Virus record (IMG/VR): IMGVR_UViG_3300014019_000001 | Coordinates: 32,001 to 96,000 of that record | Direction: 5' to 3' (one strand) | From: a virus | Lineage: Duplodnaviria > Caudoviricetes | Length of the DNA stretch: 64,000 nt | In this document: positions 9,326 through 13,575 of the stretch, piece by piece | How positions within the stretch are numbered: position 1 is the stretch's first letter | Layout: each line of letters begins with the position of its first letter | The notes under the pieces: model-generated | The model's input: only the letters and a program-made list of their open reading frames with translations | The model's database searches: none | What the model was told of the DNA's origin: nothing | Program-made: the position numbers and the translations under genes

Positions 9326-9778
9326 TCAATCACTGTGCTTCACCGAACGCACCTCGCCGCCGGTCCATGGGTCGACCTCAATGGTCAGCCGGATCGCGTC
9401 CTCGGCGCTCTTGCCCAGCTTCATCGCCATGTAGGCGCTCTGCTGCCCGGAGCCGATGGCGTAGAAGTCGGCTTTGACCGGTCCTGTGAATGCCCGGCCG
9501 TCGTTCCAGTAGAAGGCAGATCCGTCCGGCTCGACGACCAGCGCCTGAACAAGGTGCTCCTGATCGGCCACAGCGCGCTCCAGGGCGGCGTCATCCGGTA
9601 GACTGTTCAACCAGGCCAGAAAGTTGCTGGGCGCGCCCACGACGCTGCTGGAGACGCCCACAAGGCGGCCGCCGCGCAGGCGAAAGACCTTGGTCTTGTT
9701 CCCGATGGGATGCTTGTCGCCGGAATAGGCCCGGCTGTCACCTGCGAGGATGCCGGCGCGATAGGCGATTGTCGTCAT
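9326..9778 (-). CDS. Ntn-hydrolase, HslV/proteasome-beta-like peptidase
   Basis: Starts MTTIAY..LAGDS; K; AIGSG; D.WTGG. Confidence 0.75.
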   Translation of the reverse strand: MTTIAYRAGILAGDSRAYSGDKHPIGNKTKVFRLRGGRLVGVSSSVVGAPSNFLAWLNSLPDDAALERAVADQEHLVQALVVEPDGSAFYWNDGRAFTGPVKADFYAIGSGQQSAYMAMKLGKSAEDAIRLTIEVDPWTGGEVRSVKHSD

Positions 9779-10116
9779 GCAAGATCGCCCAGAATGCGCT
9801 TCGGCTGCATGATCGCCCGGTTGAGGCGATAGAAGGCGTCCTCGACGTGCCGGCGCGCGATCTGCACGGAAGCTTGGTCGATCTCCTGGCTGTCCCGGTT
9901 GCGAACGTGCTCATCGACGCGGCGCAGAACCTTTTCCTCCAGGATCTTGTTCTCGTTCACCATGTCGATCTTCCACTGCTCGACGGTCTTGGCGTAGCCG
10001 GCGACGGGCAGGCCGGAATGACCGGGAATAGGCGAGGGCGCCTTCTGGTCGTCAAAGAGGGGAAGTTGATGCGTGTCGGCAACCTCGGCGGCACGCTGCT
10101 GCTCGGTTCGGTCCAT
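9775..10116 (-). CDS. Acb2-like anti-CBASS nucleotide sponge
   Basis: VAGY...IDMVNENK...IARRHVEDAFYRLNRAIMQP matches the Acb2 pattern (GY..ID.MN..K...RAIAQP); start trimmed so it does not overlap the tRNA. Confidence 0.7.
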   Translation of the reverse strand: MDRTEQQRAAEVADTHQLPLFDDQKAPSPIPGHSGLPVAGYAKTVEQWKIDMVNENKILEEKVLRRVDEHVRNRDSQEIDQASVQIARRHVEDAFYRLNRAIMQPKRILGDLA

Positions 10117-10142
10117 TCGATGATCCTGTGGGGTAGGGGAGT

Positions 10143-10218
10143 TGGCTGAGGAGGCTGGGCTCGAACCAGCGACAGGGCGATTAACAGTCGCCAGCTCTAC
10201 CATCTGAGCTACTCCCCA
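10143..10218 (-). tRNA. tRNA-Asn(GTT)
   Basis: TGGGGAGTAGCTCAGATGGTAGAGC..GGCGA CT GTT AA TCGCC..GGTTCGAGCC..GCCA; 76-nt cloverleaf. Confidence 0.95.
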
Positions 10219-10299: not shown

Positions 10300-10551
10300 T
10301 TGATGGGAAGATCCTAAGTAAGTGATTACCTACAGTCAAGCGCGATTTAGCGAAAAGGCTATTTGGCTATAGAGCGCTATCGCTAGGAGAGGTGGCTACA
10401 GGCAGTTCCGGATCTGTGGGGCCGGGGTAGACGCAACTTAGGTCAAGGTCCATCTCGTCGGGACACAGAGGAGAGGTGGCTAGGATGCCGGGGAGTTGGT
10501 GAGCGATGGAGGTATCCCCTTGAAATCACACGCAAATCTCTAAGACTTCGC

Positions 10552-10580
10552 TTGCACTACTCGCAGCAAACGTCTAATGT
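10552..10580 (+). promoter_or_regulatory. Sigma70-type promoter of the GG-free gene
   Basis: TTGCAC (10552-57), 17-nt spacer, TAATGT (10575-80). Confidence 0.65.
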
Positions 10581-10720
10581 GTATTCATCAACAGAGAGCA
10601 AGTAGCTCAGTTGATTTGAAGCAAGCGCTTCAAGCTCTTTGACATTCGAATAGATGACATGCGACGCATCCCGATTGAGCGCGTTCATGTCACAGAAAGC
10701 TAATATTTCATCTTCAATAG

Positions 10721-10738
10721 TAAGTCATTACTGACTTA
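10721..10738. promoter_or_regulatory. 18-bp palindromic operator TAAGTCATTACTGACTTA
   Basis: Member of the dispersed TAAGTMA-N4-TKACTTA family; lies just upstream of the GAGAGAG RBS. Confidence 0.7.
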
Positions 10739-10760
10739 CACAACATGAGAGAGAACGAAC

Positions 10761-11336
10761 ATGACTGACAATAACAACGTATTCTCGACCGCTCTTAACG
10801 CTCGCGTTGACGCTGCTGTCAAAGCTGACAAGATGAGCGAGAGCAACCGTGAGAAGCTTCGCAACTTCGCGAAAGAGTGCAACAAGTCTGAAAAGCTCGT
10901 CGCTTTCTTGAGCGCGTGCGCTGTTGACGTGCGCGTATTTGAAAACGACGTCTACGAGATCGACAAGCTGCGCAATCTGTCGCGCTTCGCAGTCGATGAA
11001 ATCGCAGCGCGCGATTTCAACGAAATGAACAGATGCGTGTTCCTGACAGCGCTCGCTTTCGAACGCGCTGATATCGCGTTCACGAGAGAAGACGCGACAC
11101 ACGCTTGCAGCGCGCATTACAAAATCAAAGACGCGAAAAAGCGCGCGCTGACTTCGCAGAACGCAAAGACTGTCGCTGACAGCACAGTCGCATCGCAGCA
11201 TAGAAGCTCGCTCAAAGCGCTTGAAGCGCTGAACGTGCTTCGCAGCGTCAACAAGAGCGAGTTTCGCATGAACCTGCAAAGCGATGCGACGATTAAGCTC
11301 GCAGCGAAATTCAATATCGACCTGACGGCTAAGTAA
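10761..11336 (+). CDS. Gly/Pro/Trp-free protein, paralog of 12351..13136; putative immediate-early DNA-binding regulator
   Basis: 191-aa ORF with promoter and RBS; shares DVYEIDKL/NVYAADKL, AF..A...FT.E.A and TV...T...Q..S...AL with the paralog. Confidence 0.8.
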   Translation: MTDNNNVFSTALNARVDAAVKADKMSESNREKLRNFAKECNKSEKLVAFLSACAVDVRVFENDVYEIDKLRNLSRFAVDEIAARDFNEMNRCVFLTALAFERADIAFTREDATHACSAHYKIKDAKKRALTSQNAKTVADSTVASQHRSSLKALEALNVLRSVNKSEFRMNLQSDATIKLAAKFNIDLTAK

Positions 11337-11422
11337 GCACTTACTGCTAGAGCGCTAGAAATAGCGCTCTAGCTATTTCGCTAAATAGCCCAACCGGGCA
11401 TCCCGCGCCCCTGGAGCCACCC

Positions 11423-11999: not shown

Positions 12000-12285
12000 C
12001 CATGGAAGCCCACGGAGCCCCGTGGAGAGCGTTTCCCATGGTCGCATGAGCGCTGGCCCGTCCGAAGGGCCAAACGCGCGTCCTGGGCCGCCTGTGCCAA
12101 TATGCGCCCCATGGGGTGCCATGGCGAAAGCCCGAAATCAGGAAATAGCGAAATCGGGAAAGGAATACGAAGGTGCTGGTCCTACGGCCGACCAGCACCG
12201 GATCCCATGGAGCCCACCGGTTCCCCTAAGCCGCTCCGCCTGAATTCGCCCTAGGCTCACAATCGCCGCCCATGGAAACCCATGG
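12000..12285. repeat. Phased CCRYGG array
   Basis: Sites start at 12000, 12010, 12020, 12036, 12109, 12119, 12205, 12270, 12280. Confidence 0.75.
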
Positions 12286-12350: not shown

Positions 12351-13136
12351 TTACGCCGCCAGCACCTCCTGGAGGCGCTTGGTCTGCGGCGTGTCGGTCA
12401 GCTCGTAGACGGGCGCGCGGAACGTGCCGGAGTTCTTGACGATGCCCATCGTCTGGAGAGCCGTCATGGTCGAGGACGTCTGCGTCGACATGGTGCCCGG
12501 ATCGACGGTGTGGCGGATGAGGATCTTCTGCATGGCGGCGCTGACCTTCACCTTGTCGCAGGCTGCAGCCTTCGCCATCTCCCCGGTGAACTTCTCGCCG
12601 GCGGCGCGGAAGGCGAAGAGGCTCTTGCAGATGGCGATGTTGATCTTGTTGGTCAGGGCGCCGTCCCGGAGACCCTTCACCAGGTCAGCGAGCTTGTCCG
12701 CCGCGTAGACGTTGAAGCGGCTGCCTTCCGAGACGGACCGGTTGATGAAGTCGGGCTCGACCTGGGCGGCGATGAGGATTGCCGCTGCGGAGGGCAGGGT
12801 GAGCTTGGCGCGCGTCTTGTCCAGGCTCTTGTGGATCCGCTCGTTGTTCGGGTTCTTGGTCTTCTCGTAGGTCGCCCGGTCGTCGAAGCCCTTGGCGACC
12901 TTCTGCGCCATTGCCAGCTTCTGCTCGTCCGTGTAGCTGTCAGCGATCTGGGGCAGGGTGAGCTCGACAGCGCCGTCGCCGGCCGGGCCGGGGTCAGACT
13001 GGACCGTTTCCGAGACTACGACAGTATTGCCGTCGCCCGTTTCGAGACCGGCGAGAATAGCAACTTCGTGATCCGTGATGACTTCCTCGGATACGACGGT
13101 CGCCTGTGCCTTCTTTGCGTTGTTGTTCTTAGCCAT
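12351..13136 (-). CDS. Conserved hypothetical protein, probable C-terminal winged helix; paralog of the GG-free gene
   Basis: Start trimmed to MAKNN (AGGA RBS); motif sharing with 10761..11336. Confidence 0.8.
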   Translation of the reverse strand: MAKNNNAKKAQATVVSEEVITDHEVAILAGLETGDGNTVVVSETVQSDPGPAGDGAVELTLPQIADSYTDEQKLAMAQKVAKGFDDRATYEKTKNPNNERIHKSLDKTRAKLTLPSAAAILIAAQVEPDFINRSVSEGSRFNVYAADKLADLVKGLRDGALTNKINIAICKSLFAFRAAGEKFTGEMAKAAACDKVKVSAAMQKILIRHTVDPGTMSTQTSSTMTALQTMGIVKNSGTFRAPVYELTDTPQTKRLQEVLAA

Positions 13137-13267
13137 TTCGTGTTTCCTTCTCTCTCGTTTTCCTCTCAAGCGCTTCATTGCTCTTGATGATTACAAGATA
13201 GAACGTGTCTCTATGGGTGTCGGCTGGGAAGAACAGGCATGTTGCATGGTAATACAGGACCGTTACT

Positions 13268-13575
13268 CCATGGGACCGGAAGGTTCTCCACGGAGCCCCA
13301 CGGAACGCCATGGCTGACCGTGGAGAGGGGAGGGCGAGCCATGGGCCGGGAAGATGATTTGTCCCTAAGGAGACGGCGCGCGTTTTACGAGCCGGAGGAG
13401 TGCCATTTTAGTTTTCCCTTAATTCGCGTCTCCATACTATGTATATATACCCTTTAAAGACGTAATAACTTACTTAGTATGGAAGAGGCGAGGGAAGCGT
13501 CTCCGGCTCGTGGGTTGGTAGGCGATTCCGTGGGTGGATGGGTTTCCGGCCGTGGAAGTCCGTGGTGAACCTTGG
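13268..13575. repeat. Phased CCRYGG arrays flanking copy 2 of the AT-cored inverted repeat (13387-13511)
   Basis: Sites at 13268, 13288, 13298, 13308, 13318, 13339, 13528, 13550, 13560 and CCTTGG at 13570. Confidence 0.75.

Follow-up and report, generated by a model that had tools for sequence, protein, structure and literature searches.

The avoidance of sequence motifs as a means of immune evasion is a known kind of phenomenon. In eukaryotic viruses, CpG is depleted in response to ZAP and TC/CC in response to APOBEC3, and APOBEC3G reads CC in single-stranded DNA, leaving GG-to-AG changes on the message strand. ACA-less mRNAs resist MazF, T4 RegB cuts GGAG in early messages at a site in the Shine-Dalgarno sequence, T5 first-step-transfer DNA is devoid of EcoRI sites, T7 DNA enters in a transcription-coupled manner, and chlorella viruses encode frequent-cutting nickase/methylase pairs such as Nt.CviPII, which acts at CCD. 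Here we describe an island in the genome of a tailed phage (Caudoviricetes) in which a single predicted transcription unit is devoid of GG on its message strand and encodes a protein that lacks three amino acids. It lies in a stretch of 64,000 nucleotides, hereafter the window, comprising bases 32,001–96,000 of the 116,399-bp virus record IMGVR_UViG_3300014019_000001 (60% G+C); coordinates are window positions unless marked as genome positions. In the literature, we found no paper on a complete, strand-biased dinucleotide ban that is limited to one unit and removes three amino acids.

The island shares features with each of these systems and differs from all of them. With ZAP and APOBEC3 it has in common the depletion footprint of a dinucleotide-reading immune factor, and the strand logic of APOBEC3G is the same as that of the island; those footprints, however, are genome-wide and partial (observed/expected ratio (o/e) of 0.2–0.8), whereas the ban described here is total and confined to one unit. 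We know of no bacterial CC-specific deaminase that acts on phages. Nt.CviPII is comparable as a virus-encoded enzyme of near-dinucleotide CC specificity that shreds host DNA, with a nick blocking transcription on the template strand and being tolerated on the other, but no homologue of a nickase or methyltransferase was detected by Pfam in the island genome. MazF and RegB illustrate how a transcript escapes a sequence-specific endoribonuclease through the absence of its site, and the RegB site contains the GG that is missing from the ribosome-binding site (RBS) of the island. Their sites, however, span 3–5 nt, no amino-acid purge accompanies them, and they leave both the CC ban and the coverage of the promoter unexplained. 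In the leading DNA of T5, T7 and Autographiviridae, a short early part of the phage genome is similarly purged of a word present elsewhere, and its first genes act before protection is established; the island differs in that a dinucleotide rather than a 4–8-bp site is banned, in its strand bias, in the removal of three amino acids, in its plentiful palindromes and in being known from circular assemblies. For Autographiviridae, the early, leading region has been described as first-entering DNA free of restriction motifs (PMC12455610). In the CmdTAC defence system, CmdT ADP-ribosylates the adenine of GA dinucleotides in single-stranded RNA (PMC11618068). Bacterial immunity is thus capable of recognising no more than a dinucleotide in mRNA and of blocking translation, and a message without that dinucleotide would be immune; in contrast, GA is abundant in the island (73 occurrences), and neither a CmdT-like gene nor an ADP-ribosyltransferase was found among the phage proteins. 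To our knowledge, no avoidance footprint has been described for CmdT.

Results

Absence of GG from the message strand of one unit

On the + strand of the window, GG is absent from 10512–11327, a run of 816 bp, compared with 146 bp for the next longest GG-free run in both the window and the whole genome. The window holds 4795 GG in total, and nowhere in the genome does a run free of any other common dinucleotide come near 816 bp. A genome-wide sliding-window scan placed all 15 windows poorest in GG plus CC at this locus. A first-pass annotation, made from the letters of the window, had reported 10513–11326 as GG-free with seven CC positions beyond its left border, and a recount reproduced both statements exactly. 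With 192 G and 211 C among its 814 bases, this interval is expected from composition to contain about 45 GG and 55 CC; it contains 0 and 10. Three of the ten CC belong to the CCCC of a border box (10516–10519), the others lying at 10670, 10671, 10789, 10847, 11042, 11273 and 11321, and both GC (88) and CG (84) are over-represented. The sharp borders and GG/CC-rich flanks described in the same annotation are also present, with 26 GG in the 202 nt upstream of the box and with GG/CC resuming at 11389–11397, 16 nt past the hairpin that follows the gene. Its placement of the whole gene inside the GG-free island needs correction: the run is as stated, but one GG at 11327, at a codon junction three codons before the stop, falls within the coding sequence (CDS). 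General restriction avoidance was rejected as the cause of the island on account of its many palindromic sites, which comprise 24 six-bp sites of 11 kinds, 20 GCGC and 15 CGCG.

The CDS (10761..11336, +) encodes a protein of 191 aa from which Gly, Pro and Trp are all absent, and the reading of the protein and of its RBS, GAGAGAG, was borne out on the sequence. When this same Gly/Pro/Trp-free protein was back-translated with the codon usage of the genome (5000 samples), 21 GG (minimum 9) and 36 CC (minimum 18) were obtained, against 1 and 5 observed. When synonymous codons were shuffled between the positions they occupy in the gene (5000 trials), codon junctions gave a mean of 14.5 GG and never fewer than 6, against 1 in the CDS and 0 within the run. 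From these two tests it follows that both codon choice and codon order are arranged against GG. NCC codons, the favourites of the genome, are almost absent from the gene, and its Arg codons are likewise without GG. The avoidance of GG extends to 250 nt of non-coding DNA, including the RBS and the stems of the predicted terminator hairpin. In 11 strict loci from related genomes, taken together, GG (o/e 0.00) and CC (0.02) are the only depleted dinucleotides, and GC rises to 1.83 and CG to 1.73.

Conservation of the ban in related loci

Four close homologues of the island protein share 81–91% identity with it, and an exhaustive profile-free search recovered 51 representatives at 26–55% identity; a search for related loci with the single protein as query gave no match. 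Among 54 homologues, Gly is missing from 41, Pro from 38 and Trp from 52, and the exceptions are mostly of a longer, normally coded paralogue type. The DNA was compared for 21 loci, with protein identities of 26–91% and host DNA of 40–65% GC. The message strand carries at most two GG in 17 of the 21 loci and at most two CC in 12. In ten loci there is no GG from box to stop, and no CC except in at most one conserved CC-bearing word; these strict loci include the cultured Rhizobium phage B1VFA (gene B1VFA_061; 0 GG and 0 CC over ~850 bp), the 40% G+C contig L010 and the 63% G+C phage L034. Seven further loci, the window among them, also carry at most two GG, and in five of these the CC ban is relaxed to 5–30 occurrences (GG/CC of 1/7 in the window, 1/24 in L007, 2/30 in L028, 0/10 in L039 and 1/5 in L050). 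The reverse pattern, with the CC ban kept and GG relaxed, never exceeds two GG, and 4 of the 21 loci are lax on both. In one lax locus (L031, record G001), 8 Gly and 3 Pro have been regained, and the box and the gene are kept.

The relaxed GG and CC occupy synonymous positions, that is, codon junctions or NCC codons, which is the pattern expected once a constraint has been lifted, and the absence of the amino acids is conserved even where the DNA ban is relaxed. A longer banned word was considered and rejected, since the exceptions share no context beyond GCATCCC and the relaxed dinucleotides stand at synonymous positions. With an unconstrained GG:CC expectation of about 1:1.7, the 1 GG against 24 CC of L007 cannot be put down to mutational chance. 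To a reader of duplex DNA, GG and CC are one and the same step, yet several loci keep the GG ban alone, which argues for a strand-specific reader. The strand asymmetry pointed out in the first-pass annotation is thus real and recurs in other lineages (at most two GG with 5–30 CC in five loci), and it argues against a further suggestion made there, namely avoidance of protospacer-adjacent motifs (PAMs) or restriction sites, in so far as a purely symmetric reader of the duplex, such as that of a PAM or a type II site, would be at work.

Taken together, selection on the nucleic acid keeps the message strand of the unit GG-free, and the unit was ancestrally CC-free as well. The ban predates the divergence of the protein family and is still enforced in many lineages. 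That such selection has reshaped the protein, as originally proposed, is supported by the codon-junction and back-translation tests, by the retention of the ban in orthologues and by a distant family of about 50 members without Gly, Pro and Trp.

Organisation of the island

The island is preceded by a G-rich region (10340..10512, +) with 26 GG against 6 CC and a repeat, AGGAGAGGTGGCTA, at 10385 and 10469. Flanked by a leftward tRNA/Acb2-like operon on one side and the island on the other, this region probably has a regulatory role; in 17 of 20 related loci, the 200 nt before the box are G-rich on the message strand with GAGGTGG-type (GAGGTGG/GAGGAGG) repeats. It abuts the GG-free zone, and an RNA from its opposite strand would be C-rich and G-poor, as Rho loading sites are. 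A tRNA-like T-arm (GGAGAGTTCGGATCTCC) occurs within the region in B1VFA and L039.

At the 5' border lies a conserved bipartite box, (C/T)ATCCCC-N20-CTAAGACTTC (10513..10549, +), which occurs once in the genome and has a spacing of exactly 20 nt at every locus. A search with the box pattern returned 34 viral contigs, 12 of them real and the others chance matches in low-GC phages. Many otherwise strict loci carry CC or GG in the N20 spacer, 2–5 nt from TCTAAGAC, so the GG/CC-free zone starts sharply at the box's right half (TCTAAGAC). Judging from its sequence and position, the box is probably an operator rather than the promoter itself. A candidate sigma-70-type promoter, TTGCAC-N17-TAATGT, follows at 10552..10580 (+). 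In long-leader loci, including the window, CTAAGACTTC stands just upstream of CTTGCA-N16/17-TAnnnT, and in short-leader loci it forms the spacer of a sigma-70-like promoter, TTGAAC-16-TAAAGT. Since a region containing ..AATCATC.. is common to both arrangements, the start is predicted near 10586–10590 and the leader at ~175 nt, and the position of this promoter and leader, proposed from the window at the outset, is conserved in relatives.

The leader (10587..10760, +) is GG-free, has a fold z-score of −2.4 and matched no Rfam family. It contains a 24-nt element, GCTCTTTGACATTCGAATAGATGA (10634–10657), conserved down to 35% protein identity, and a second GCATCCCG (10666–10673), which is the sole source of CC in the leader; the leaders of strict relatives likewise tolerate no other CC. 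The RBS (10747..10753, +) is a Shine-Dalgarno sequence without GG, and the consensus of the relatives before the ATG is AGAGAGAG. Downstream of the gene, a perfect 12-bp hairpin, GCTAGAGCGCTA-GAAA-TAGCGCTCTAGC (11346..11373, +), is without GG or CC, has equivalents after the gene in relatives and, by its sequence, is probably a terminator. Directly outside the 3' border stands GGGCATCCCGCGCCCC (11397..11412, +) with a third GCATCCC word; a GCATCCC word is found at the 3' border of L003, L033 and L034 as well.

In most relatives, as here, the zone stops 10–45 nt after the hairpin. In B1VFA and L018 it continues 95–150 nt beyond strong intrinsic terminators, and in L010, L016, L007 and L017 it takes in a second small gene, which is without Gly, Pro and Trp where complete. 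Zone length is fairly constant at 0.75–1.3 kb, irrespective of gene borders. Untranscribed DNA under the ban includes 24–47 nt upstream of the predicted start, with free spacer positions in strict loci. No conserved motif of an antisense promoter was found at the 3' borders across loci.

In a strict relative, a second run of 379 bp (G003:C1:21030-21408), ~1.6 kb downstream of the island, is GG-free on the + strand of the record, which corresponds to CC-free in the sense of the island message, and may be another unit under the same rule. Two metagenomic contigs, L007 and L017 (954 and 1049 bp), consist of the GG-free zone only, starting at most 12 nt from the box and ending in the second GG-free gene. 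Their ends probably reflect an assembly break at sequence common to co-occurring strains, a physical DNA end being less favoured. The idea that the island lies near physical DNA termini was dropped; complete relatives are circular assemblies with 95–127-bp overlaps.

The encoded protein and its paralogue

AlphaFold modelling of the 191-aa protein with its family alignment gave a predicted local distance difference test score of 95.7 and a predicted template modelling score of 0.90, the N-terminal part being helical and the C-terminal part a winged helix (H140-156, followed by wing strands E160-162 and E167-170). Residues 71–187 of the model align to many winged-helix chains (VIA-align; Z of 6–8.1 over 70–90 residues, root-mean-square deviation of 2–3.5), and the N-terminal helical domain of 70 residues is unmatched in them. 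The 11 loops of the model contain no Gly or Pro at all. The protein thereby resembles winged-helix regulators (MarR/ArsR/PadR-like; AF1382, PDB 2qvo) in its C-terminal part, and it differs from them in its unmatched N-terminal domain and in belonging to no sequence family. The winged-helix match speaks for the modelled fold and does not extend to function.

Pfam and PHROGs scans of the protein returned nothing usable, Foldseek against the PDB with the model gave nothing below an E value of 0.1, and neither the island nor the protein had a sequence match in 50,697 phage records. The whole fold is shared with two uncharacterised viral models, and similar clusters in a protein atlas, with hundreds of members, are all unnamed. 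The protein is real and folded, and it probably binds DNA. Hypermutation debris was rejected on account of the intact reading frame, the confident fold and the conserved family.

About 1 kb from the island gene, a normally coded paralogue of 275 aa, with Gly and Pro, is encoded on the opposite strand (12351..13178, −). It shares 28% identity with the island protein over 107 aa of the winged-helix region (E 2e-6) and is kept in relatives. Arrays of CCATGG/CCACGG/CCGTGG flank it at 12000–12285 and 13268–13344, and 10 of the 44 CCATGG of the genome fall within 1.3 kb. These arrays look like iterons or operators, possibly an origin with an initiator-like winged-helix protein.

Genomic context

Judged by its gene content, the genome is a B1VFA-like rhizobial phage-plasmid. 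It shares with this group a size of ~110–122 kb, parA, parB-N, repC, DnaE, rIIA/B and the order helicase – ParA – tRNA-Asn/Met – island gene. The study of B1VFA describes siphophages that have 3.6–3.9-kb terminal repeats and carry parA, parB and repC (PMC12509600). B1VFA, L009 and L018 show the same gene order around the island, with the gene at 42.6 kb in the B1VFA record, and a 91% identical island gene lies on a 117-kb Shinella plasmid. The genes of the present genome encode a helicase, ParA/ParG, two ParB-N proteins with an ABC ATPase, RepC, DnaB, DnaE fused to a domain of the uracil-DNA glycosylase (UDG) family, a gp32-like protein, a RecA-like protein, SbcCD, ligase, ribonucleotide reductase, thymidylate synthase, rIIA/B, NAMPT, a LexA-like repressor, a sigma-like protein and Fic/Doc.

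Divergent from the island runs a leftward operon with its own sigma-70-like promoter, which carries tRNA-Met, tRNA-Asn and, co-oriented with them, a protein with an Acb2/Tad1 hairpin domain (9775-10200, −), found in the same place in L005 and L018. A Tad2-like protein is encoded further left (2357-2650, −). Acb2/Tad1-like and Tad2-like proteins are sponges for immune signalling nucleotides, and by its gene content the neighbourhood of the island looks like an early, anti-defence region.

A set of palindromic restriction sites is strongly counter-selected throughout the genome. CAGCTG, CCGCGG, CCCGGG, CACGTG and GTAC are all absent, with 34–314 of each expected on both strands; GTAC alone would be expected ~157 times per strand in the 116 kb. 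CTCGAG, AGGCCT, ACGCGT and CTAG are strongly depleted. On both strands, CCGCGG was counted 0 times (55 expected), CCCGGG 0 times (41) and AGGCCT 4 times (41). Such a profile, typical of restriction avoidance, indicates that type II enzymes can reach the infecting DNA.

The DnaE-type polymerase (PHP, Pol III alpha, HHH) with its C-terminal UDG-superfamily domain is encoded at L013:3865-7224 (genome 97865-101227, −). A dUTPase and a dCTP-deaminase-like protein are also encoded, and uracil in DNA may be a live issue for the phage. Upstream of leftward genes, (C/T)AACCC-N12-15-TAnnnH occurs at nine sites on the − strand, eight of them in the window (16210, 28026, 31669, 37762, 40154, 41088, 48056 and 58764) and one at genome 107364. 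These sites form a putative phage-specific promoter class whose CAACCC is similar to the CATCCCC half of the island box, and the phage also has a gene for a sigma-70 region-2 protein (genome 101754-102401).

Discussion

The absence of GG from coding and non-coding parts of one unit, and its persistence in relatives in which the CC ban has lapsed, very probably reflect selection at the level of the nucleic acid by a strand-specific reader. Based on these results, we hypothesise a scenario in which (i) the operator/promoter box, the leader, the gene of the winged-helix protein and the hairpin would constitute one transcription unit; (ii) this unit would have to be expressed while a strand-specific dinucleotide-reading factor is active, at a moment when genes written in the normal alphabet would be unreliable; (iii) the factor would be a CC-directed attack on DNA, such as nicking, removal or deamination of a base, or formation of a bulky adduct, for which either the host or the host-shutoff machinery of the phage would be responsible; (iv) a hit on the transcribed strand, where CC corresponds to GG in the message, would stop or corrupt transcription and would be strictly forbidden, and a hit on the other strand would only damage the DNA, resulting in a weaker ban that has decayed in several lineages including the window; and (v) the product would probably be an early regulator binding GCATCCC- or CCATGG-type sites. 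The need for expression under an active reader would account for the retention of a normally coded paralogue next to the unit, and a single CC-reading agent with different consequences on each strand explains why GG is banned more strictly than CC. We place the reader on DNA rather than RNA because the ban covers promoter DNA, hairpin stems and, in B1VFA and L018, the sequence past the terminators. As the specific mechanism, the CC-directed attack on DNA is put forward tentatively.

Several points weigh against this proposal. The start and end of transcription are predicted, and the GG/CC-free promoter positions are few and partly fixed by the promoter's own consensus. Expression timing is read from gene order alone. 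An attack on DNA gives no reason why only one unit should need protection, and a GG-specific reader of RNA accounts equally well for the strictest and most conserved part of the pattern. Pfam scans of ~130 phage proteins detected no methyltransferase, TGT/DpdA, glycosyltransferase, GNAT, nickase or RNase toxin, and no cytosine deaminase, the sole deaminase being the dCTP-deaminase-like protein. When the whole proteome of a ban-lost relative was compared with those of strict relatives, no enzyme-like gene was absent solely from the genome without the ban. That genome is also the most divergent, and what it lacks are small, unannotated or anti-defence genes.

Among the other explanations, an escape at the RNA level deserves most attention, although we consider it unlikely. 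A nuclease or modifier acting on GG in single-stranded RNA, be it a toxin from a defence or addiction module of the host or an RNase with which the phage shuts off its host, would be active during expression, and a GG-free message would be immune to it, with the CC ban arising from a GG-free antisense transcript or from a second factor. It is in the message that GG is most strictly and most widely avoided, the untranslated leader and the GG-less RBS included, the zone in most loci ends shortly after the hairpin, and CmdT on GA provides a precedent for a dinucleotide-specific attack on single-stranded RNA (PMC11618068). However, a second cause would be needed for a CC ban that is complete in about ten loci, and the 3' borders show no conserved antisense promoter. 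Promoter DNA upstream of the predicted start and sequence past the strong terminators of B1VFA and L018 are also under the ban, and the hairpin stems avoid GG even though they would be invisible to a reader of single strands. Among the ~130 phage proteins, none of the MazF/PemK, RelE, HEPN, PIN or ART families was detected by Pfam, only Fic/Doc being found.

It is less probable still that the unit occupies the end of the virion DNA that enters first and was purged of host restriction words or of CC/GG PAMs of clustered regularly interspaced short palindromic repeats (CRISPR) systems before anti-defence proteins are made. The phage does practise classical site avoidance, as the five absent palindromes show, and zone length is fairly constant. 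First-step-transfer DNA of T5 offers a precedent. So do the leading regions of Autographiviridae (PMC12455610), and the ends of B1VFA DNA are fixed, with a terminal repeat of 3.6 kb (PMC12509600). Nevertheless, a duplex reader cannot give the strand asymmetry of the five CC-relaxed loci, the palindromes within the island are not purged, the available complete records are circular assemblies, with the gene at 42.6 kb in the B1VFA record, and a single PAM-free gene leaves the rest of the genome exposed.

The phage could alternatively mark a CC/GG word in its own DNA by means of the operon that encodes two ParB-N proteins together with a permease-less ABC ATPase; such marking would hinder host RNA polymerase, and an immediate-early unit would be kept unmarked. 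This would account for a single odd unit and for a normal paralogue for later use, and the operon is present and highly conserved. We nevertheless regard it as improbable to a high degree. Its ABC ATPase and 293-aa neighbour are 60–76% identical in the ban-lost G001, the CC-relaxed G002 and the strict G003–G005, so that the presence of the operon does not track the ban, and Pfam detected no GNAT domain in it. Other early genes would meet the same block. Moreover, the genome-wide purge of palindromes containing CC and GG (CCGCGG, CCCGGG and AGGCCT) makes it unlikely that the phage modifies CC throughout its virion DNA, and CC steps in the infecting DNA thus appear unprotected.

A relation of silencer and anti-silencer between the paralogues, in which the normal paralogue or another duplex binder of CC..GG words (those of the CCATGG arrays) would coat or silence CC/GG-rich DNA and the island copy, being unbindable, would be expressed under global silencing, carries even less probability. 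The two proteins do share winged-helix domains, CCATGG-type arrays flank the normal copy, and the repeated GCATCCC word is the one place where the unit allows CC, but a duplex binder reads both strands alike, contrary to the GG-only bans, escape from a 6-bp site requires no ban on every GG and CC, and there is no evidence for coating or silencing. Finally, a cause in the protein or in translation, with an all-helical protein in need of no Gly, Pro or Trp or with tRNA-depleted codons avoided and the DNA pattern as a by-product, would suit the mostly helical, confident fold and the outlasting of the DNA ban by the amino-acid absence, but it is scarcely credible given the absence of GG from non-coding DNA, codon junctions and Arg codons, the near disuse of NCC codons and a set of loops without Gly or Pro that would be unusual for any fold.

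A strand-specific reader of CC/GG would have consequences beyond this phage. Motif avoidance reveals the attackers of phages, and the ban implies a CC/GG reader that has yet to be named, be it a defence, a host-shutoff enzyme or a DNA mark. We see about an even chance that GG/CC-free units are the footprint of an undescribed activity that reads bare CC or GG strand-specifically on DNA or RNA and is widespread in bacteria or borne by phage-plasmids. If so, prokaryotes would possess an equivalent of ZAP/CpG or APOBEC3G/CC powerful enough to have stripped a protein family of three amino acids, and the islands would provide both a handle for finding the activity and a natural design rule for making genes immune to it. 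The system is tractable, since B1VFA is cultured, the Shinella plasmid comes from an isolate, and among natural relatives the ban is found intact, half relaxed or lost. For annotation, the case calls for caution in that a protein family without Gly, Pro and Trp may owe its composition to DNA rather than to its fold. The ban itself is older than the divergence of a family with >1,000 members.

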